26,727 nucleotides of DNA from a virus (lineage: Duplodnaviria; Heunggongvirae; Uroviricota; Caudoviricetes), in the IMG/VR virus record IMGVR_UViG_2675903433_000037, one strand, 5' to 3'. The notes under the pieces are model-generated. The model worked only from the letters and a program-made list of their open reading frames with translations. It made no database searches and had not been told where the DNA came from. Shown here one piece after another: positions 8,504 to 22,393 of this stretch; within the stretch, counting starts at the first letter, position 1, and every line of letters starts with the position of its first letter. The position numbers and the translations under genes were made by a program.

Positions 8504-8719
8504 TCATCGCTCCTTAAAGACGCCGTTTAACATGCCGATCGCCAGACTTAAATGAGTCGGTGTGAATCCCATTAGCGTTACCGTTTCGCGGTGCTTCTTC
8601 AGTACGCTACGGCAAATGTCATCGACGTTTTTATCCGGAAACTGCTGTCTGGCTTTTTTGATTTCAGAATTAGCCTGACGGGCAATGCTGCGAAGGGCGT
8701 TTTCCTGCTGAGGTGTCAT
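8504..8719 (-). CDS. Hypothetical protein orfX, 71 aa (copy A)
   Basis: [15 protein letters not shown]...GVFKER. The ATG overlaps the stop of a small upstream ORF (ATGA). The track ORF carries a 22-aa N-terminal extension that I reject. Confidence 0.5.
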   Translation of the reverse strand: MTPQQENALRSIARQANSEIKKARQQFPDKNVDDICRSVLKKHRETVTLMGFTPTHLSLAIGMLNGVFKER

Positions 8720-8799
8720 TGAACAAGTCCCATGTCGGCAAGCATAAGCACACAGAATATGAAGCCTGCTGCCAGAAAAATGCATTCTGTTGTTGTCAT
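8716..8799 (-). CDS. Small hydrophobic peptide, 27 aa (copy A)
   Basis: [31 protein letters not shown] overlaps at both ends, with orf63-like upstream and orfX downstream. Too short for the ORF track. Confidence 0.35.
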   Translation of the reverse strand: MTTTECIFLAAGFIFCVLMLADMGLVQ

Positions 8800-8987
8800 G
8801 CCGGGTCTCTCTCGTTTGCTTCTGCTTTCGCCGCCATCATTTCCAGCTTTTGTGAAAGGGATGTGGCTAACGTATGAAATTCTTCGTCTGTTTCTACTGG
8901 TATTGGCACAAACCTGACTCCAATTTGAGCGAGGCTATGTGCCATCCCGATACTCGTTCTTAATTCAACAGGAGATGCTTTGTGCAT
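8796..8987 (-). CDS. Lambda orf63-like protein, 63 aa (copy A)
   Basis: Position and sequence resemble recalled lambda orf63 between exo and ea22. Confidence 0.55.
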   Translation of the reverse strand: MHKASPVELRTSIGMAHSLAQIGVRFVPIPVETDEEFHTLATSLSQKLEMMAAKAEANERDPA

Positions 8988-9148
8988 ACAGCCCCTCGTT
9001 TATTATTTATCTCTTCAGCCAGCCGCTGTGCTTTCAGTGGATTTCGGATAACAGAAAGGCCGGGAAATACCCAGCCTCGCTTTGTAACGGAGTAGACGAA
9101 AGTGATCGTGCCTACCCGGATATTATCGTGAGGATGCTTCATTACCAT
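8960..9148 (-). CDS. Lambda orf60a-like protein, 62 aa (copy A)
   Basis: '[11 protein letters not shown]...' lies immediately downstream of exo, as recalled for lambda orf60a. Confidence 0.55.
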
Positions 9149-9522
9149 TGCTCCCCATATACAAAACCAATTTCAGCCAGTGCCTCGTCCATTTTTTCGA
9201 TGAACTCCGGCACCATCTCGTCAAAACTCGCCATGTACTTTTCATTCCGCTCAATCACGACATAATGCAGGCCTTCACGCTTCATGCGCGGGTCATAGTT
9301 GGCAAAGTACCAGGCATCTTTTCGTGTCACCCACATGCTGTACTGCACCTGGGCCATGTAAGCCGATTTTATTGCCTCGAAACCACCGAGCCGGAATTTC
9401 ATGAAATCCCGGGAGGTAAACGGGCATTTCAGTTCAAGGCCGTTGCCGTCACTGCATAAACCATCGGGAGAGCAGGCGGTGCGCATACTTTCGTCGCGAT
9501 AGATGATCGGGGATTCAGTAAA
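9142..9522 (-). pseudogene. exo: exo 3' fragment (C-terminal ~125 codons), truncated by the IS element
   Basis: Translation equals the C-terminal part of the full exo at 12642-13319. Homology ends at 9522 where IS sequence begins. Confidence 0.8.
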
Positions 9523-9586
9523 TGAGGTAGCCTGAGTTTAACGGACACTCCTTCCTGAAATAGAATGGCATCAGAAGGAGCTAATA

Positions 9587-9889
9587 ATGAGCAGAAAAAC
9601 CCAACGTTACTCTAAAGAGTTCAAAGCCGAAGCTGTCAGAACGGTTCTTGAAAATCAACTTTCGATCAGTGAAGGCGCTTCCCGATTATCTCTTCCTGAA
9701 GGCACTTTAGGACAATGGGTTACCGCCGCCAGAAAAGGGCTCGGTACTCCTGGTTCCCGCACGGTGGCTGAACTGGAATCTGAAATTCTGCAACTGCGTA
9801 AGGCGTTAAATGAAGCTCGCCTTGAGCGAGATATATTAAAAAAAGCAACAGCGTATTTTGCACAGGAGTCGCTGAAAAATACGCGTTAA
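9587..9889 (+). CDS. IS3-family transposase OrfA (HTH), 100 aa
   Basis: 'MSRKTQRYSKEFKAEAV...' with a leucine-zipper-like C-terminus; slippery aaaaaaag at about 9838-9845. Confidence 0.85.
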   Translation: MSRKTQRYSKEFKAEAVRTVLENQLSISEGASRLSLPEGTLGQWVTAARKGLGTPGSRTVAELESEILQLRKALNEARLERDILKKATAYFAQESLKNTR

Positions 9890-9924
9890 TCGAACAATGG
9901 CGACAACAATTTCCCATTGAAGCG

Positions 9925-10743
9925 ATGTGTCAGGTATTTGGTGTATCCAGGAGCGGTTATTACAACTGGGTACAGCATGAACCCTCAGACAGAAAACAAA
10001 GTGATGAGCGGCTAAAACTGGAGATTAAGGTGGCACATATCCGCACTCGCGAAACATATGGAACCCGGCGGCTCCAGACGGAGCTGGCAGAGAATGGCAT
10101 CATCGTTGGTCGTGACCGACTGGCACGTCTTCGTAAGGAGCTAAGGCTACGCTGTAAGCAGAAACGCAAGTTCAGAGCGACTACGAACTCGAACCACAAT
10201 CTGCCAGTTGCGCCAAATCTGCTGAACCAGACGTTCGCTCCTACAGCACCAAATCAGGTCTGGGTGGCGGACCTGACGTATGTTGCCACACAGGAGGGAT
10301 GGTTGTACCTCGCTGGCATCAAAGATGTTTATACGTGCGAAATTGTCGGCTACGCCATGGGAGAGCGCATGACAAAAGAGCTGACAGGTAAAGCTCTGTT
10401 TATGGCGCTCAGGAGCCAGCGCCCACCTGCCGGGCTAATCCACCACTCTGATCGAGGTTCACAGTACTGCGCATACGATTACCGGGTCATACAGGAGCAG
10501 TTTGGTCTGAAAACATCAATGTCGCGTAAAGGTAACTGTTACGACAACGCTCCGATGGAAAGCTTCTGGGGAACGCTGAAAAATGAGAGCCTGAGCCACT
10601 ATCGTTTTAATAACCGGGATGAAGCCATCTCAGTAATACGGGAATACATTGAGATTTTCTACAATCGTCAGCGTCGTCACTCTCGTCTGGGGAATATCTC
10701 CCCGGCAGCCTTCAGGGAAAAATATCATCAGATGGCTGCTTAA
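9925..10743 (+). CDS. IS3-family transposase OrfB (DDE integrase core)
   Basis: 'WVADLTYV...HHSDRGSQY...CYDNAPMESFW' DDE motifs. The native product is probably an OrfAB fusion by -1 frameshift, so the true 5' end lies upstream of this ATG. Confidence 0.85.
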   Translation: MCQVFGVSRSGYYNWVQHEPSDRKQSDERLKLEIKVAHIRTRETYGTRRLQTELAENGIIVGRDRLARLRKELRLRCKQKRKFRATTNSNHNLPVAPNLLNQTFAPTAPNQVWVADLTYVATQEGWLYLAGIKDVYTCEIVGYAMGERMTKELTGKALFMALRSQRPPAGLIHHSDRGSQYCAYDYRVIQEQFGLKTSMSRKGNCYDNAPMESFWGTLKNESLSHYRFNNRDEAISVIREYIEIFYNRQRRHSRLGNISPAAFREKYHQMAA

Positions 10744-10790
10744 AAAAAGAACAAATGGTAGTGTCCGCTATTGCCAGTACACCTCAGTTC

Positions 10791-10979
10791 TTAACTCAAC
10801 AGGAGATGCTTTGTGCATACAGCCCCTCGTTTATTATTTATCTCCTCAGCCAGCCGCTGGGCTTTCAGTGGATTTTGGATAACAGAAAGGCCGGGAAATA
10901 CCCAGCCTCGCTTTGTAACGGAGTAGAAGAAAGTGATCGTGCCTACGCGGATATTATCGTGAGGATGCTTCATCGCCAT
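10791..10979 (-). CDS. orf60a-like protein (copy B, divergent)
   Basis: Same family as 8960-9148 with several substitutions. Confidence 0.5.
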
Positions 10980-11650
10980 TGCTCCCCAAATACAAAACCA
11001 ATTTCAGCCAGTGCCTCGTCCATTTTTTCGATGAACTCCGGCACCATCTCGTCAAAACTCGCCATGTAATTTTCATCCCGCTCAACCACGACATAATGCA
11101 GGCCTTCACGCTTCATTCGTGGGTCATAGTTGGCAAAGTACCAGGCATCTTTTCGCGTCACCCACATGCTGTACTGCACCTGGGCCATGTAAGCCGACTT
11201 TATGGCCTCGAAACCACCGAGCCGGAATTTCATGAAATCCCGGGAGGTAAACGGGCATTTCAGCTCAAGGCCGTTGCCGTCACTGCATAAACCATCGGGA
11301 GAGCAGGCGGTGCGCATACTTTCGTCGCGATAGATGATCGGGGATTCAATAACATTTACGCCGGAAGTGAACTCAAACAGGGTTCTGGCGTCGTTCTCGT
11401 ACTGTTTTCCCCAGGCCAGCGCTTTAGCGTTAACTTCCGGAGCCACACCGGTGCAAACCTCAGCCAGCAGGGTGTGGAAGTAGGATATTTTCATGTCAGG
11501 CCACTTCTTTCCTGATCGGGGCTTTGCTATCACGTTGTGAACTTCTGAAGCGGTGATGACGCCGAGCCGTAATTTGTGCCATGCATCATCCCCCTGTTCG
11601 ACAGCTCTCACGTCGATCCCGGTACGCTGCAGGATAATGTCCGGTGTCAT
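10970..11650 (-). CDS. exo: Lambda-type exonuclease, 226 aa (copy B, divergent allele)
   Basis: Full-length ORF ending GEQWR like recalled lambda Exo; differs from copies A and C at several residues. Confidence 0.85.
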
Positions 11651-12219
11651 GCTGCCACCTTCTGCTCAGTGGCTTTCTGTTTCAGGAATCCAAGAGCTTT
11701 CACTGCTTCGGCCTGTGTCAGTTCTGACGATGCGCGAATGTCGCGGCGAAATATCTGGGAACAGAGCGGCAATAAGTCGTCATCCCATGTTTTATCCAGG
11801 GCGATCAGCAGAGTGTTAATCTCCTGCATGGTTTCATCGTTAACCGGAGTGATGTCGCGTTCTGGCTGACGTTCTGCAGTGTATGCAGTATTTTCGACAA
11901 TGCGCTCGGCTTCATCCTTGTCATAGATACCAGCAAATCCGAAGGCCAGACGGGCACACTGAATCATGGCTTTATGCCGTAACATCCGTTTGGGATGCGA
12001 CTGCCACGGATCCTTAAAGACGCCGTTTAACATGCCGATCGCCAGACTTAAATGAGTCGGTGTGAATCCCATTAGCGTTACCGTTTCGCGGTGCTTCTTC
12101 AGTACGCTACGGCAAATGTCATCGACGTTTTTATCCGGAAACTGCTGTCTGGCTTTTTTGATTTCAGAATTAGCCTGACGGGCAATGCTGCGAAGGGCGT
12201 TTTCCTGCTGAGGTGTCAT
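11647..12219 (-). CDS. Chimeric ORF: orfX N-terminal 69 aa fused in frame to the Bet C-terminal 119 aa
   Basis: Translation is MTPQQ...[15 protein letters not shown]...KVAA. The junction near 12005 joins bet-internal sequence to the orfX 3' end. Confidence 0.6.
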
Positions 12220-12299
12220 TGAACAAGTCCCATGTCGGCAAGCATAAGCACACAGAATATGAAGCCTGCTGCCAGAAAAATGCATTCTGTTGTTGTCAT
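12216..12299 (-). CDS. Small hydrophobic peptide, 27 aa (copy C)
   Basis: Identical to 8716-8799, offset by 3500 bp. Confidence 0.3.
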   Translation of the reverse strand: MTTTECIFLAAGFIFCVLMLADMGLVQ

Positions 12300-12487
12300 G
12301 CCGGGTCTCTCTCGTTTGCTTCTGCTTTCGCCGCCATCATTTCCAGCTTTTGTGAAAGGGATGTGGCTAACGTATGAAATTCTTCGTCTGTTTCTACTGG
12401 TATTGGCACAAACCTGACTCCAATTTGAGCGAGGCTATGTGCCATCCCGATACTCGTTCTTAATTCAACAGGAGATGCTTTGTGCAT
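12296..12487 (-). CDS. orf63-like protein (copy C)
   Basis: Identical to copy A. Confidence 0.55.
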   Translation of the reverse strand: MHKASPVELRTSIGMAHSLAQIGVRFVPIPVETDEEFHTLATSLSQKLEMMAAKAEANERDPA

Positions 12488-12648
12488 ACAGCCCCTCGTT
12501 TATTATTTATCTCTTCAGCCAGCCGCTGTGCTTTCAGTGGATTTCGGATAACAGAAAGGCCGGGAAATACCCAGCCTCGCTTTGTAACGGAGTAGACGAA
12601 AGTGATCGTGCCTACCCGGATATTATCGTGAGGATGCTTCATTACCAT
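12460..12648 (-). CDS. orf60a-like protein (copy C)
   Basis: Identical to copy A. Confidence 0.55.
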
Positions 12649-13319
12649 TGCTCCCCATATACAAAACCAATTTCAGCCAGTGCCTCGTCCATTTTTTCGA
12701 TGAACTCCGGCACCATCTCGTCAAAACTCGCCATGTACTTTTCATTCCGCTCAATCACGACATAATGCAGGCCTTCACGCTTCATGCGCGGGTCATAGTT
12801 GGCAAAGTACCAGGCATCTTTTCGTGTCACCCACATGCTGTACTGCACCTGGGCCATGTAAGCCGATTTTATGGCCTCGAAACCACCGAGCCGGAACTTC
12901 ATGAAATCCCGGGAGGTAAACGGGCATTTCAGCTCAAGGCCGTTGCCGTCACTGCATAAACCATCGGGAGAGCAGGCGGTGCGCATACTTTCGTCGCGAT
13001 AGATGATCGGGGATTCAGTAACATTCACGCCGGAAGTGAACTCAAAGAGGGTTCTGGCGTCGTTCTCGTACTGTTTTCCCCAGGCCAGAGCCTTAGCGTT
13101 AACTTCCGGAGCCACACCGGTGCAAACCTCAGCCAGCAGGGTGTGGAAGTAGGACATTTTCATGTCAGGCCACTTCTTTCCTGATCGGGGTTTTGCTATT
13201 ACGTTGTGAATTTCTGAAGCTGTGATGACGCCGAGCCGTAATTTGTGCCACGCATCATCTCCCTGTTCGACAGCTCTCACGTCGATCCCAGTACGCTGCA
13301 GGATAATGTCCGGTGTCAT
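12642..13319 (-). CDS. exo: Lambda exonuclease (Red-alpha), 225 aa
   Basis: Near-identical to recalled lambda Exo; ends GEQW-stop, one codon shorter than copy B. Overlaps the bet stop. Confidence 0.9.
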
Positions 13320-14101
13320 GCTGCCACCTTCTGTTCAGTGGCTTTTTGTTTCAGGAATCCAAGAGCTTTTACTGCTTCGGCCTGTGTCAGTTCTGACGAT
13401 GCACGAATGTCGCGGCGAAATATCTGGGAACAGAGCGGCAATAAGTCGTCATCCCATGTTTTATCCAGGGCGATCAGCAGAGTGTTAATTTCCTGCATGG
13501 TTTCATCGTTAACCGGAGTGATGTCGCGTTCCGGCTGACGTTCTGCAGTGTATGCGGTATTTTCGACAATGCGCTCGGCTTCATCCTTGTCATAGATACC
13601 AGCAAATCCGAAGGCGAGACGGGCACACTGAATCATGGCTTTATGACGTAACATCCGTTTGGGATGCGACTGCCACGGCCCCGTGATTTCTCTGCCTTCG
13701 CGGGTTTTGAATGGTTCGCGGCGGCATTCATCCATCCACTCGGTAACGCAGATCGGATGATTACGGTCCTTGCGGTAAATCCGGCATGTGCAGGATTCAT
13801 TGTCCTGCTCAAAGTCCATGCCATCAAACTGCTGGTTTTCGTTGATGATGCGGGACCAGCCATCAACGCCCACCACCGGAACGATGCCGTTCTGCTTATC
13901 AGGGAAGGCGTAAATTTCTTTCGTCCACGGATTAAGGCCGTACTGGTTGGCGACGATCAGCAATGCGATGAACTGCGCATCGCTGGCATCACCTTTAAAT
14001 GCCGTCTGGCGAAGAGTGGTGATCAGTTCCTGTGGGTCGACAGAATCCATGCCGACACGTTCAGCCAGCTTCCCAGCCAGCGTTGCGAGTGCTGTACTCA
14101 T
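13316..14101 (-). CDS. bet: Bet (Red-beta) single-strand annealing protein, 261 aa
   Basis: '[75 protein letters not shown]...' matches recalled lambda Bet. Confidence 0.95.
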
Positions 14102-16726: not shown

Positions 16727-16830
16727 AGTCCAAATGTACAACCAAGGTTTTATTCCATCAAACGAAAATGGTTGTTGACTAAAAACAACCATAGTTTTAA
16801 TCTTGATTCAAATTAACCACGGAGGTTGTT
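16727..16830. promoter_or_regulatory. Divergent PRM/PR-type promoter-operator region
   Basis: 104-bp spacer between the divergent cI-like and cro-like genes. Inverted repeat atggttgtt-N9-aacaaccat at about 16768-16795; the cro-like gene has a ggagg RBS. Confidence 0.6.
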
Positions 16831-17130: not shown

Positions 17131-17670
17131 ATGCAACCACTTCCATACCAACAGACTAGCGGATTTAGCCCGACTGCGGTGATAAATCGTTCTCAAACAA
17201 AACAGGTGCCAGGCCACGAAAAAATCCGTGATGCCGTCCGCGCCTGGTCGGCTGTAGATAATCAGGATGTCGTTGCCACACTCATTGTGAATGAGTATCG
17301 GGAGCAGGGCGGCGGCACCATCGATTTCCCTGATGATGTCAGCCGTACACGCCAGAAGCTGTTCCGCTTCCTCGATAACAAATTCGATTCTGAAAAATAC
17401 CGAAATAACGTGCGTGAACTGACCCCGGCAATTCTGGCGGTACTACCGCTGGAATATCGCGGTTACCTGGTTGAGCAGGATAGCTTCATGGCTAGGTTGG
17501 CTGAAATGGAAAAGGAACTCAGTGAGGCAAAACAGGCTGTCATTCTCAACGCACCACGCCACCAGAAACTGAAGGAAATTAGTGAAGGTATTGTGTCGAT
17601 GTTTCGTGTGGACCCAGAGCTGGCTGGTCCATTGATGGCGATGGTTACTACCATGCTGGGGGCGATATGA
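17131..17670 (+). CDS. YdaT-like protein at the cII position, 179 aa
   Basis: 'EYREQGGGT' and 'LTPAILAVLPLEYRGYL' resemble recalled Rac-prophage YdaT; aaggag RBS. Confidence 0.55.
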   Translation: MQPLPYQQTSGFSPTAVINRSQTKQVPGHEKIRDAVRAWSAVDNQDVVATLIVNEYREQGGGTIDFPDDVSRTRQKLFRFLDNKFDSEKYRNNVRELTPAILAVLPLEYRGYLVEQDSFMARLAEMEKELSEAKQAVILNAPRHQKLKEISEGIVSMFRVDPELAGPLMAMVTTMLGAI

Positions 17671-17756
17671 CAGGTTCAGAAATGGCGAAAGCCGGTCTGC
17701 TGGAACAGAACCGACTTTCAGGTGCAAATCGTAACACACTCATTGCGGGAGGAATT

Positions 17757-18686
17757 ATGGCAAACACTGCTGAGATATTCAATTTTCCAGTGCCGGATGC
17801 GGCACAAAAGGAGCCGCGCGTGGCAGATCTCGATGATGGTTATACGCGCATTGCAAATGAGTTGCTGGAAGCTGTAATGCTGGCCGGATTAACACAGCAC
17901 CAGCTTCTGGTCTTCCTGGCTGTCATGCGCAAAACATATGGCTTTAATAAAAAACTGGACTGGGTGAGCAACGAGCAACTTTCCGAGTTGACCGGGATAT
18001 TGCCGCACAAGTGTTCTGCTGCAAAAAGTGTTCTGGTAAAGCGTGGGATTTTTATTCAGAGCGGGCGGAATATCGGCATTAATAATGTGGTCAGTGAATG
18101 GTCAACATTACCCGAATCAGGTAAGAAAAATAAAGTTTACCTGAAAGAGGTAAATTTACCTGAATCAGGTAAGAAAAGTTTACCCAAATCAGGTAAAGGC
18201 ACTTACCCGAATCAGGTAAACACAAAAGACAAACTAACAAAAGACAATATAAAACCTTATTCGTCCGAGAATTCTGGCGAATCCTCTGACCTGCCAGAAA
18301 ACGACCTTCCTGTGGTGAAAGCGGATGCTGCGATTCAGAGCGGCAGCAAGTGGGGGACAGCAGAAGACCTGACCGCCGCAGAGTGGATGTTTGACATGGT
18401 GAAGACCATCGCGCCATCAGCCAGAAAACCGAATTTTGCAGGGTGGGCTAACGATATCCGTCTGATGCGTGAACGTGATGGACGTAACCACCGCGACATG
18501 TGTGTACTGTTCCGCTGGGCCTGCCAGGACAACTTCTGGTCCGGTAACGTGCTGAGTCCGGCCAAACTCCGCGACAAGTGGACCCAGCTCGAAATCAACC
18601 GGAACAAGCAACAGGCTGGCGTGACAGTCGGCAAACCAAAACTCGACCTGACAAACACAGACTGGATTTACGGGGTGGATCTATGA
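17757..18686 (+). CDS. O: Replication initiator O-like protein, 309 aa
   Basis: N-terminus resembles lambda O ('ADLDDGY...RKTYG'); ori iterons lie inside the gene; stop overlaps the P start. The track ORF starts 90 nt upstream; ATG 17757 has a gggagga RBS. Confidence 0.85.
   Translation: MANTAEIFNFPVPDAAQKEPRVADLDDGYTRIANELLEAVMLAGLTQHQLLVFLAVMRKTYGFNKKLDWVSNEQLSELTGILPHKCSAAKSVLVKRGIFIQSGRNIGINNVVSEWSTLPESGKKNKVYLKEVNLPESGKKSLPKSGKGTYPNQVNTKDKLTKDNIKPYSSENSGESSDLPENDLPVVKADAAIQSGSKWGTAEDLTAAEWMFDMVKTIAPSARKPNFAGWANDIRLMRERDGRNHRDMCVLFRWACQDNFWSGNVLSPAKLRDKWTQLEINRNKQQAGVTVGKPKLDLTNTDWIYGVDL
18105..18270. repeat. Origin of replication: four to five palindromic ~18-bp iterons plus an AT-rich tract
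   Basis: Repeated tTACCcgAATCAGGTAAg units at about 18109, 18136 (degenerate), 18155, 18179 and 18201, followed by an A-rich stretch. Confidence 0.7.
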
Positions 18687-19384
18687 AAAACATCGCCGCA
18701 CAGATGATTAACTTTGACCGTGAGCAGATGCGTCGGATCGCCAACAACATGCCGGAACAGTACGACGAAAAGCCGCAGGTACAGCAGGTAGCGCAGATAA
18801 TCAACGGTGTATTCAGCCAGTTACTGGCAACTTTCCCGGCGAGCCTGGCTAATCGTGACCAGAACGAACTGAACGAAATCCGCCGCCAGTGGGTTCTGGC
18901 TTTCCGGGAAAACGGGATCACCACGATGGAACAGGTGAGCGCCGGAATGCGTGTTGCCCGTCGGCAGAATAGACCATTTCTGCCATCACCCGGGCAGTTT
19001 GTTGCATGGTGCCGGGAAGAAGCATCCGTTAACGCCGGGCTGCCAAACGTCAGCGAGCTGGTTGATATGGTTTACGAGTATTGCCGGAAGCGTGGCCTGT
19101 ATCCGGATGCAGAGTCTTATCCGTGGAAATCGAACGCGCATTACTGGTTGGTTACCAACCTGTACCAGAACATGCGGGCCAATGCGCTGACTGACGCGGA
19201 ATTACGGCGCAAGGCTGCCGATGAACTGACCTGTATGACAGCGCGAATTAACCGTGGTGAGACGATACCTGAACCAGTAAAACAACTTCCTGTTATGGGC
19301 GGTAGACCTCTAAATCGTGCACAGGCTCTGGCGAAGATCGCAGAAATCAAAGCTAAGTTTGGGCTGAAAGGAGCAAGTGTATGA
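18683..19384 (+). CDS. P: Replication protein P (DnaB helicase loader), 233 aa
   Basis: 'MKNIAAQMINFDREQMRRIANNMPEQYDEKPQVQQVAQIINGVFSQLLATFPASLANRDQNE...' is near-identical to recalled lambda P. Confidence 0.95.
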   Translation: MKNIAAQMINFDREQMRRIANNMPEQYDEKPQVQQVAQIINGVFSQLLATFPASLANRDQNELNEIRRQWVLAFRENGITTMEQVSAGMRVARRQNRPFLPSPGQFVAWCREEASVNAGLPNVSELVDMVYEYCRKRGLYPDAESYPWKSNAHYWLVTNLYQNMRANALTDAELRRKAADELTCMTARINRGETIPEPVKQLPVMGGRPLNRAQALAKIAEIKAKFGLKGASV

Positions 19385-20444: not shown

Positions 20445-20504
20445 CTGTGCGTTGCCGCAAAATCGGCACACGGGATTGGCGTCCCGGACATCAAAACGAC
20501 GCAT

Positions 20505-20527
20505 AACCGCGTTCGCGGTTTTTTTAT
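20505..20527 (+). terminator. Intrinsic terminator in the leader upstream of the Bro-N gene
   Basis: aaccgcg-tt-cgcggtt hairpin followed by ttttttt, about 60 nt downstream of the predicted promoter. Confidence 0.55.
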
Positions 20528-20688
20528 GCGCAGTGCACGTCTACACAAAAATTATGGTGGGCTGTGTGAGGGCTTCTTCGGAAGCGCCGGATTTCGTTTT
20601 GACCGGTTACGCCAACCTTGCACAGTCCACCACCAGTCGATTGGCGTCGTCGGTGGTGATAGCTCAAATTCAAAACGAGATTATCGCT

Positions 20689-21297
20689 ATGGTCACTCAG
20701 CTCGCATTCCGCGATGTAAAATTCACTCCTATAAATCACAACAACCAGATCTGGTTTACCAGCAAAGAATTGGCGGCAGCATTAAAATATGCCAGCACCA
20801 AAGCAGTAACCGACATCTACAACAAAAATATTGATGAGTTTACTGACGGAATGTCTCAGGTCGTCGAATCAACGACCTCAGGAAATTATCGTAAGAAGAC
20901 TCGCATTTTCTCCCTCCGTGGCGCCCATCTGATCGCCATGTTCGCCCGCACTCCTGTGGCCAAAGAATTCCGCCGCTGGGTGCTGGATATTCTCGATCGA
21001 GAAATTCAACAATCCCCAATCACAAAACAATTCACTGATAACGAACTTTGCACACTTGCTTGGTTATGGCGGGCAAGTGACACAATGTTAACCGCTTGCC
21101 AAAACGTCACTCCGCTTCTTCAGGTAGCAGAACACCGCGAAGCCGGTCGCTTCACTTCAATCGAACAAGAATATCCCCGGATACTCAATAAGGCACAGGC
21201 AATCCTTGCCAGAGAAACGGCACATGTAAAATTCCGGCCGTGGCAGGATGATAAGTGGAGTCGAGTATTGACGCATTTACGTTCTGAACGGCTGTAA
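20689..21297 (+). CDS. Bro-N domain antirepressor-like protein, 202 aa
   Basis: N-terminus 'FTPINHNNQIWFTSKELAAAL...RIFSLRGAHLIAMFARTPVAKEFRRWVLDIL' fits the Bro-N pattern. The track's 281-aa ORF would span the promoter and terminator. Confidence 0.65.
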   Translation: MVTQLAFRDVKFTPINHNNQIWFTSKELAAALKYASTKAVTDIYNKNIDEFTDGMSQVVESTTSGNYRKKTRIFSLRGAHLIAMFARTPVAKEFRRWVLDILDREIQQSPITKQFTDNELCTLAWLWRASDTMLTACQNVTPLLQVAEHREAGRFTSIEQEYPRILNKAQAILARETAHVKFRPWQDDKWSRVLTHLRSERL

Positions 21298-21596: not shown

Positions 21597-22013
21597 ATGA
21601 ATAAAAACGACCTTGAAGCATTATCTGACACTAGGCTTAATGAGGCCAAATGCTTGCTTGATCATGGCTTTTTTCATGGTGCATATTATCTTTGTGGGTA
21701 TGCAGTTGAATGTGCATTGAAGGCCTGTATTGCCAAGTCATTTTTACAACATGAGTTTCCAAACAAAAAAGTCGTAAATGATTCATATACTCATGATTTG
21801 TCGCAACTTCTCAAAATTGCCAACTTACATCAAATTTTGATTGCTGACGCAAAAAATGATGTTTCGTTGGAGATTAACTGGTCGGTCGTTAAAGACTGGA
21901 GCGAGCAATTTAGATACGACAATAACATAAGTAAAGCTATGGCCGAACAATTGTTTGATGCTGTAGGTGACCAAAATTCTGGAGTTTTGAAATGGGTAAA
22001 AGCACACTGGTAA
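21597..22013 (+). CDS. HEPN-like domain protein, 138 aa
   Basis: 'AYYLCGYAVECALKACIAK', 'YTHDLSQLLKIA' and 'EQFRYDNN' resemble the PF05168-type HEPN helical signature. AT-rich gene. Confidence 0.6.
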   Translation: MNKNDLEALSDTRLNEAKCLLDHGFFHGAYYLCGYAVECALKACIAKSFLQHEFPNKKVVNDSYTHDLSQLLKIANLHQILIADAKNDVSLEINWSVVKDWSEQFRYDNNISKAMAEQLFDAVGDQNSGVLKWVKAHW

Positions 22014-22393
22014 TCGGCAGAGAGTTGACAAAAGATATGGAATTCTCAGGTCAATTTTTGTTAAAAAAACTCAAGTTACAGAATTTAACTATTGATGCTG
22101 CAATGTGGTTTTATTACCCAGATCTATCTTGGAGATATATTTTAGTTATCAGTGACTTCTCAGAACGTGGGCCGGCAGAAATATATAGAAAAATCAGTGA
22201 GATAAATAGAAATAGCATATCAAAAAAGTATAAGCCGATACCATTAGAAGCAATTGAGGCTAAGGGGGATTCAGCTTTTGTTTATAAAATGTTAAAAGGA
22301 TTTGCTAGAGTCAACGATGGTAAAGTTCGCGTTTCTAATTCTATGGTAAATGGTTTAGAAATCGTTGACTGTCTGATCTATGAGTTAAAATAA
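21992..22393 (+). CDS. Hypothetical 133-aa protein overlapping the HEPN-like gene by 22 nt
   Basis: ATG with a ggag RBS 7 nt upstream, inside the 3' end of the HEPN-like ORF. No nucleotidyltransferase motif seen. Confidence 0.5.
   Translation: MGKSTLVIGRELTKDMEFSGQFLLKKLKLQNLTIDAAMWFYYPDLSWRYILVISDFSERGPAEIYRKISEINRNSISKKYKPIPLEAIEAKGDSAFVYKMLKGFARVNDGKVRVSNSMVNGLEIVDCLIYELK

Follow-up and report, generated by a model that had tools for sequence, protein, structure and literature searches.

In phages lambda, 434 and 21, the replication origin lies inside the initiator gene O, between the parts that encode the N- and C-terminal domains, and is made up of four 18–19-bp iterons and a 38–40-bp AT-rich tract; the GenBank record of phage 434 annotates it as "ori lambda, 4 iterons for gpO binding". 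How such an origin fires is known from lambda, where O dimers occupy the iterons, the DNA is bent or wrapped, and the A+T-rich tract opens when the DNA is supercoiled. The C-domain of O then brings P-DnaB, chaperones free the helicase, and the process requires transcription from pR in cis (PMC5043065, PMC7466680, PMC3349717). The locus described here belongs to a lambdoid prophage contained in a 26,727-nucleotide stretch of DNA, which as a whole we call the window. Positions 18108–18261 are very probably the bidirectional (theta) replication origin of this prophage, lying, as in lambda, inside the initiator gene O. The case is built on the anatomy of the segment, its positional homology to an annotated ori, a repetition that exists at the DNA level, and the co-variation of iteron class with the O N-domain, all of which can be read directly from the sequences compared.

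The gene that holds the array spans 17667–18686 (339 aa) by its mechanical and RefSeq start. Its true start is probably the ATG at 17757, giving a gene at 17757–18686 on the + strand with a 309-aa product, because GGAGG lies 5 nt before this codon and the alignment to 434/lambda O begins at M31 of the long ORF. The product matches the full-length Pfam profile Phage_rep_O (PF04492) with E = 8.3e-34 over aa 51–145 of the 339-aa ORF, which puts it in the lambda O family and bears out a preliminary description of the locus that had placed the repeats inside the O coding sequence. Compared with 434 O by BLASTP, it is 67% identical overall (E = 2e-145), a figure that covers two unlike halves. Over its N-terminal 115 residues the identity is 48% to lambda/434 and 84% to Klebsiella phage RCIP0098, and the origin-specific DNA-binding domain (Phage_rep_O) occupies 17817–18101 (+ strand) by Pfam coverage. 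The C-terminal lambda-type, P-interacting domain at 18262–18686 (+ strand) agrees with 434/lambda O at 134 of 140 residues (96%), and its part in contacting P would be the one described for lambda (PMC6022878). A search of PDB sequences with O returned nothing at E <= 0.01; we regard the domain assignment as settled by the Pfam match together with the homology to lambda O. The gene for P, the DnaB helicase loader, lies at 18683–19384 (+ strand; Phage_lambda_P, PF06992, E = 1e-61), and its product is 98% identical to 434 P.

A repeat search of the window finds five repeats of TTACCYGAATCAGGTAA, all of one family, starting at 18108, 18137, 18156, 18180 and 18203. The iteron core is a 17-bp dyad-symmetric unit of the form TTACC-N7-GGTAA, and every copy is itself palindromic. 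With up to 3 mismatches allowed, the TTACCYGAATCAGGTAA pattern occurs at these 5 sites only in the whole 26.7-kb window, where the search reports 10 strand matches, each palindrome being hit on both strands; in dinucleotide-preserving shuffles the mean number expected by chance is 0.10 and the maximum 1. Measured from start to start, successive units are 29, 19, 24 and 23 bp apart (mean 23.75), which agrees with the roughly 23 bp given in the preliminary description, which had also counted four to five copies of a palindromic unit of about 18 bp. The palindromic character stands, the number of copies is five, and the core is 17 bp long. The array of five dyad-symmetric units lies midway along the O reading frame, directly after the part that encodes the N-domain.

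The correspondence with the lambda-type origin can be followed unit by unit. Iteron 1 (TTACCCGAATCAGGTAA, 18108–18124) begins 29 bp upstream of iteron 2 and is an extra promoter-proximal unit, with no lambda counterpart in the 434 ori alignment. Iteron 2 (TTACCTGAAAGAGGTAA, 18137–18153), which has perfect arms and a divergent spacer, aligns with lambda/434 iteron 1, and iterons 3 (TTACCTGAATCAGGTAA, 18156–18172), 4 (TTACCCAAATCAGGTAA, 18180–18196) and 5 (again TTACCCGAATCAGGTAA, 18203–18219) align with lambda/434 iterons 2, 3 and 4, iteron 5 adjoining the A-rich tract. Direct alignment thus matches iterons 2–5, in register, to the four gpO sites annotated in 434. In lambda, 434 and 21, as in the window, each unit has dyad symmetry and a 7-nt spacer whose top strand is rich in A, the last four units are spaced by 19–20, 24 and 23 bp, and the last adjoins a near-identical A-rich tract.

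The half-sites differ. The lambda group has TCCCT, with the consensus ATCCCTCAAAACGAGGGA (TCCCT-N7-AGGGA), and the window has TTACC/GGTAA arms, so that most of the five arm positions are different; the window also has five units rather than four, and its upstream activator is YdaT/phi80-CII-like rather than lambda-cII-like. Phage 21, as deposited, carries lambda-class iterons, and no TCCCT-N7-AGGGA unit is present in the region downstream of the window's N-domain. The arms differ from those of phi80 as well (TTCCC-N6-GGGAA). Because the arm sequence differs, the lambda and phi80 specificity groups are excluded for the window, and the earlier suggestion that the iteron is distinct, to be checked against lambda, 21, 82 and phi80, is upheld in the comparisons with lambda, 21 and phi80.

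Directly after iteron 5 comes the A-rich tract, ACACAAAAGACAAACTAACAAAAGACAATATAAAACCTTATT, which covers 42 bp at 18220–18261 (+ strand) and, by analogy with lambda, would serve as the DNA-unwinding element (PMC5043065, PMC3349717). The presence of such a tract behind the repeats had been noted before, and composition agrees: the 42 nt from 18221 are 74% AT and 57% A on the + strand. The tract is part of a GC minimum in which GC content dips to 0.30–0.38 over 18090–18269, against about 0.45–0.6 in the flanks. It is homologous to the 38–40-bp AT-rich region of lambda, and in ungapped comparison its first 30 nt match 434 at 23 positions and SEN34 at all 30. A tract core of CACAAAAGA...ACAAAAGA is kept in most of the O-family lineages examined, including some with unrelated C-domains. 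From the base after iteron 5, the window and 434 are nearly identical through the tract and the rest of O, and in megablast searches the matches of the window to lambda, 434, Stx phages and others begin only at about 18207–18220, with 93–95% identity. These alignments indicate that the window has lambda's own unwinding element, O C-domain and P, combined with a different cassette made up of the N-domain and the iterons. The architecture is accordingly that of lambda, as first proposed: homologues of O and then P, iterons 2–5 in register with the 434 sites, and the same A-rich tract.

Since this stretch of DNA is also translated, the repeats could in principle be a by-product of a repetitive, flexible linker peptide that O needs. 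The segment does encode the inter-domain linker of O, and iterons 1, 3 and 4, read in frame 0, give LPESGK, LPESGK and LPKSGK; to that extent the preliminary description was right that the repeats encode an LPESGKK segment. Its statement fails for the other two units, since iterons 2 and 5 lie in another frame and give the unrelated peptides VYLKEVN and TYPNQVN. Because the iterons are split over two reading frames, the repetition is one of DNA, and it is the DNA motif, not the peptide, that selection has kept. Each unit is moreover a DNA palindrome, which a peptide repeat would not need, the TTACC/GGTAA arms are conserved across genera while the encoded peptides vary, and in-frame deletions in this part of lambda leave O able to complement (PMC6022878). 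We consider a linker-peptide origin of the repeats extremely improbable and, given the two frames and the palindromes, reject it.

If the iterons are the binding sites of O, then their sequence should follow the domain that reads them. We compared 32 O-family lineages, taken from annotated phages and species-representative genomes, by reading the DNA after each N-domain and counting iteron copies at up to 1 mismatch in the ten arm positions. Nearly all share a common plan of an N-domain, 2–9 dyad repeats and a CACAAAAGA...ACAAAAGA tract, with the last repeat usually adjoining the tract, and most lineages compared retain the 24/23-bp phasing of the last units. TTACC-N7-GGTAA is found in 13 of the 14 lineages (the window counted) with at least 64% N-domain identity to the window. 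These 13, at 64–100% identity and with 4–9 copies, are the window itself, Enterobacter (2), Klebsiella (2, including phage RCIP0098), Pseudocitrobacter, Pantoea (3), Xenorhabdus, Providencia, Arsenophonus and Sodalis. At 47–61% identity, the iterons are TTAGC-N7-GCTAA (SEN34, phiES15, Siccibacter, Scandinavium, an Enterobacteriaceae MAG, a second E. bugandensis prophage, RCIP0114 and HK97). P22, at 60%, has TTACC-N5-GGTAA, and the lambda class TCCCT-N7-AGGGA is found at 45–48% (434, Pantoea multigeneris, P. stewartii, Serratia, Rahnella and Yersinia). Lineages at 41–42% have TTCCC-N6-GGGAA (phi80), GTCAC-N7-GTGAC (SEN22) or AACCC-N7-GGGTT (Aeromonas).

Across the 32 lineages, iteron half-site class therefore tracks the N-domain and not the C-domain. 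Two cases make this especially clear: RCIP0098 shares its iterons with the window and its N-domain is 84% identical, but its C-domain is unrelated, its cII is short and lambda-like, and its immunity region is different, and 434 has a 96%-identical C-domain yet different iterons. Such co-variation is what one would expect of an N-domain that reads the iterons, as is established for lambda O (PMC6022878, PMC5043065). The exception among the 14 lineages is a homologue in Enterobacter sichuanensis (L100; 74% N-domain identity), which has no iterons at this position; here an inserted T5orf172 domain separates the N-domain from the A-rich tract. The N-domain can therefore occur with no array beside it. 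The comparison supports a matched specificity pair formed by the iteron sequence and the O N-domain, unlike the pairs of lambda/434/21 and of phi80. The earlier proposal that a distinct iteron implies a distinct O specificity gains support from this co-variation, on comparative evidence.

The same comparison bears on whether a protein other than O could be the one that binds here. Dyad-symmetric 17-mers are typical of many dimeric regulators, and a YdaT-domain gene (17131–17670) lies directly upstream of O, so a YdaT/CII-like activator, a repressor or a host factor might be considered. The product of the YdaT-domain gene is 66% identical to phi80 CII, and YdaT-type proteins are CII analogues in a related O157 prophage (PMC8630535). 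The TTACC-N7-GGTAA motif, however, is absent from the rest of the window, the cI-cro intergenic region included, and RCIP0098 keeps the iterons although the short lambda-like cII replaces YdaT and its immunity region is different. The tracking of the O N-domain by iteron class across the 32 lineages speaks against another binding protein, as does the position of the units, which fall at the exact place of the annotated gpO/gp15 sites in 434, 21 and phi80. With the motif confined to O and following its N-domain, we reject such a protein as the reader of the array and judge it highly improbable.

Recognition by O would allow the origin to work much as in lambda. Upon derepression, rightward transcription would yield O and P and also activate the origin. 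Dimers of O would bind the five TTACC-N7-GGTAA iterons through the N-terminal Phage_rep_O domain, and the resulting bent nucleoprotein complex, on supercoiled DNA, would destabilise the adjoining 42-bp A-rich tract. The lambda-type C-domain of O would then recruit P-DnaB, from which host chaperones would free DnaB. In this scheme dimer binding, bending, unwinding, P-DnaB recruitment and the dependence on transcription are all modelled on lambda biochemistry. A candidate for the rightward early promoter can also be proposed. Upstream of the ydaT gene lie a cro-like gene and then a divergent S24-peptidase repressor gene, and at 16775–16803 (+ strand) the sequence reads TTGACT, 17 nt, TAATCT. This candidate pR overlaps a 25-bp perfect palindrome (16768–16792) in the cI-cro intergenic region; it is a weak consensus match that falls below the threshold of a consensus scan. 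If it is the promoter, it would transcribe the cro-like, ydaT/cII-like, O and P genes and activate the ori.

The window begins with host sequence (gyrA and yfaA), after which comes the lambdoid prophage; its order in the first part is int and xis; IS600; exo, bet and gam; the cI-like gene, the cro-like gene and ydaT; and O and P. After P come the isrK and C4 RNAs with a P22AR antirepressor gene and then a HEPN-domain gene, and the right part holds the DLP12-type genes ybcN, ninE, ybcO, rusA, ylcG and quuD, a porin gene, and essD and rrrD. A scan of the window at Rfam gathering thresholds finds isrK and C4 only; neither the ori nor the oop-like region is covered by an Rfam family. Assignment of the window to the argU/DLP12 locus of strain E2865 was considered and is wrong for the left 12 kb, since the match to the E2865 prophage begins only at about 12005.

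The origin could be genuine by descent yet functionally dead here, the iterons being a recently inherited relic in a cryptic element. IS600 (9523–10786) sits in the early-left arm, flanked by a partial exo-bet duplication, and because of these two features this prophage copy may not be inducible; the nin/Q/lysis region is moreover of the cryptic DLP12 type. Against this, the cI-cro-cII-O-P-ori block is intact, with the O, P, cI-like, cro-like and cII-like genes all full-length, and the array is identical to that of phage Perceval and present in this form in 72 of 82 loci scanned. We therefore hold a dead origin to be unlikely, and it would in any case concern the activity of one copy and not the identity of the feature, which we continue to read as a replication origin.

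The 82 loci comprise 80 IMG/VR loci with the window's N-domain and the phages Perceval and RCIP0098, and the 72 share five identical units and identical spacings. Locus L054 lacks exactly one 24-bp unit, an in-frame loss. Between Perceval and the window there are 28 differences in O, and none falls in the 85 nt of iteron cores. In complete E. coli genomes, the N-domain plus iteron segment is present in 2,297 of 5,426 with a coverage of at least 80%, and a 216-bp ori segment in 2,368 of 5,426 (about 44%), at up to five places per genome. About 15 sequenced phages carry a full O gene at about 97% identity, several of which list E. coli K-12 or C as host, and lineages with TTACC-N7-GGTAA span Escherichia, Klebsiella, Enterobacter, Pseudocitrobacter, Pantoea, Xenorhabdus, Providencia, Arsenophonus and Sodalis. 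Neither the Perceval record nor the RefSeq record of strain E2865 annotates an origin at O.

From the work of Furth and Yates in 1978 on lambda-82 hybrids, the O protein of phage 82 is said to combine a type-specific N-half with a lambda-compatible C-half. That layout, together with a lambda-compatible P, is also the layout of the window. Lambda-82 hybrids served as classical material for studying how hybrid O proteins are built (Furth and Yates 1978, cited in PMC6022878). The nin region of the window is DLP12-like, and DLP12 ybcN is 97% identical to orf151 of phage 82 (PMC4118853). The window's iteron class is thus possibly the classical phage 82 type (ori82, sequenced in 1979–81), in which case nothing in this origin would be new. 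No phage 82 record is among the matches to the window's O gene, and a full-text literature search for the iteron sequence on either strand found only an unrelated primer in a nutrition paper; the 1979–81 papers on the phage 82 and phi80 origins fall outside that search.

A larger interpretation can be drawn from these observations taken jointly, although we think it distinctly unlikely as a whole: that the window represents a distinct and very widespread specificity group, often common to co-resident prophages, whose O can fire matching origins in trans, with the A-rich tract acting as a recombination joint. If this were so, then O from one induced prophage would fire the origins of neighbouring cryptic prophages, coupling their replication and amplifying the host or virulence genes that flank them, and the conserved A-rich tract would be the joint at which a cassette of N-domain and iterons is moved between helicase-loading modules. 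More immediately, the 32 lineages provide a natural specificity series, with TTACC, TTAGC, TCCCT, TTCCC, GTCAC and AACCC arms and spacers of 5–7 nt, which could serve the study of how the O N-domain reads half-site and spacer length, and the motifs can be used to annotate the origins of lambdoid prophages.

Among other described origins, those of the Stx phages 933W and P27 resemble the window in having more than lambda's four iterons. They carry six, of the lambda sequence class and bound by a lambda-like O, whereas the window's units are of another class; the extra promoter-proximal iterons lengthen O, and there are two in the Stx phages and one in the window. Plasmid replication in the P27 case depends on the extra iterons, though only four are strongly bound (PMC7466680). 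Phage phi80 has the same architecture, with four annotated gp15 sites and a spacer core, CCGAAATCAGG, similar to that of the window. It also shares the cII-like gene upstream (66% identical) and an oop/M3-like promoter that overlaps the start of the initiator gene. It differs in arms and spacer length, in an O that is 42% identical overall, and in an A-rich tract and a C-domain/gp14 that have diverged from the lambda type. P22 shares the TTACC/GGTAA half-site, the A-rich tract and an N-domain of 60% identity, and its gene 18 holds an annotated rep_origin with four repeats of about 20 bp (PMC8022706). Its spacer, however, is 5 nt long against 7 in the window, and its unrelated C-domain has a DnaB-type helicase (gene 12) as its partner in place of P.

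More distantly, the iteron plasmids P1, F, R6K, pPS10 and RK2 likewise place an array of replicon-specific initiator sites beside an AT-rich unwinding element (PMC5043065). In these plasmids the iterons are direct repeats that lie outside the rep gene and are bound by Rep monomers, whereas those of the window are palindromes, presumably bound by dimers, inside the initiator gene. The architecture of the window's origin is thus an already known one, that of the textbook lambdoid origin, and its iteron class is very common but unannotated in the phage and RefSeq records examined. That class ranks among the commonest of E. coli prophage origins, and although this matters little beyond annotation, it adds TTACC-N7-GGTAA, in 4–9 copies, as a defined iteron class to the lambda, phi80 and P22 origin types.

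The O gene, which encodes a lambda-O-family replication initiator, is probably over-extended at its start in RefSeq and in several phage records. The longer start, ATG 17667, overlaps the stop codon of ydaT, the cII-like gene just upstream, whereas ATG 17757 has a GGAGG 5 nt upstream of it and is the codon with which Met1 of the lambda, 434 and phi80 O proteins aligns. Initiation at 17757 would give a product of 309 amino acids, compared with 339 from 17667. Overlapping the O start on the minus strand is a candidate promoter (TTGAAT and CATAAT separated by 17 nt, with a TG; 17782 to 17754) that shows conservation with the M3 promoter of phi80 and the oop promoter of 434, and a candidate oop/M3-like antisense RNA can be drawn on that strand at 17687-17782. 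Its hairpin, at about 17687-17719, has a weak U tail and a fold z-score of −2, and a gathering-threshold Rfam scan reported no family within 17687-17782.

Upstream, the cI-cro intergenic region contains a perfect 25-bp palindrome, ATGGTTGTTGACTAAAAACAACCAT (16768-16792), as well as repeated ACAACC motifs, and together these are candidate operators overlapping a candidate pR. The early-left arm of the prophage is rearranged (8566-13678): an IS600 element at 9523-10786 is flanked by a partial exo-bet duplication, in which 10783-12009 corresponds to a second copy at about 12450-13680 with about 97% identity. The window prophage is possibly a hybrid derived from two prophages.

Downstream of O is a tandem pair of Rfam matches, one to isrK (64 bits) and the other to C4 antisense RNA (82.5 bits), just upstream of a gene for an antirepressor-type protein with a P22AR C-terminal domain. 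This arrangement (20453-20637 and 20689-21297) looks like an antirepressor control module of the P1/P7 or Gifsy type within a lambdoid prophage. By the RefSeq annotation of the matching locus in strain E2865, a HEPN-domain gene overlaps a hypothetical gene; the pair (21597-22393) lies after the antirepressor gene and before the nin genes, and may be toxin-antitoxin or defence cargo.

Among the O-family loci collected for comparison, the genome contig matches L114-L126 and L128 carry lambda-type O genes with 49% identity to that of the window, a level close to the one seen for lambda-type O itself. These contigs have low coverage and are assigned to unrelated taxa, among them Shewanella, Pseudomonas, Neobacillus, Oceanobacillus, Bradyrhizobium and Ruminococcus. 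Several measure about 48.4-48.5 kb, and the assemblies concerned were probably contaminated with lambda control DNA.

An O homologue from Enterobacter sichuanensis (NZ_POVL01000015.1), with an N-domain 74% identical to that of the window, lacks the iteron array. Its place (within 1045-1430 of that locus) is taken by about 100 inserted codons that specify a T5orf172 domain (PF10544, E = 6e-8) and separate the N-domain from the conserved A-rich tract. A single Enterobacter bugandensis genome (CAXYPO010000002.1) holds two O-type prophages, L098 and L113, that differ in iteron class, TTACC-N7-GGTAA and TTAGC-N7-GCTAA, which is consistent with co-resident prophages having separate replication specificities. 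The P22 gene-18 origin (1202-1346 of its locus) has the same TTACC/GGTAA arms as the window iterons (18108-18219), but a spacer of 5 nt instead of 7 nt, and the P22 N-domain is 60% identical to that of the window, making the two a natural pair for studying what fixes half-site spacing in O dimers.
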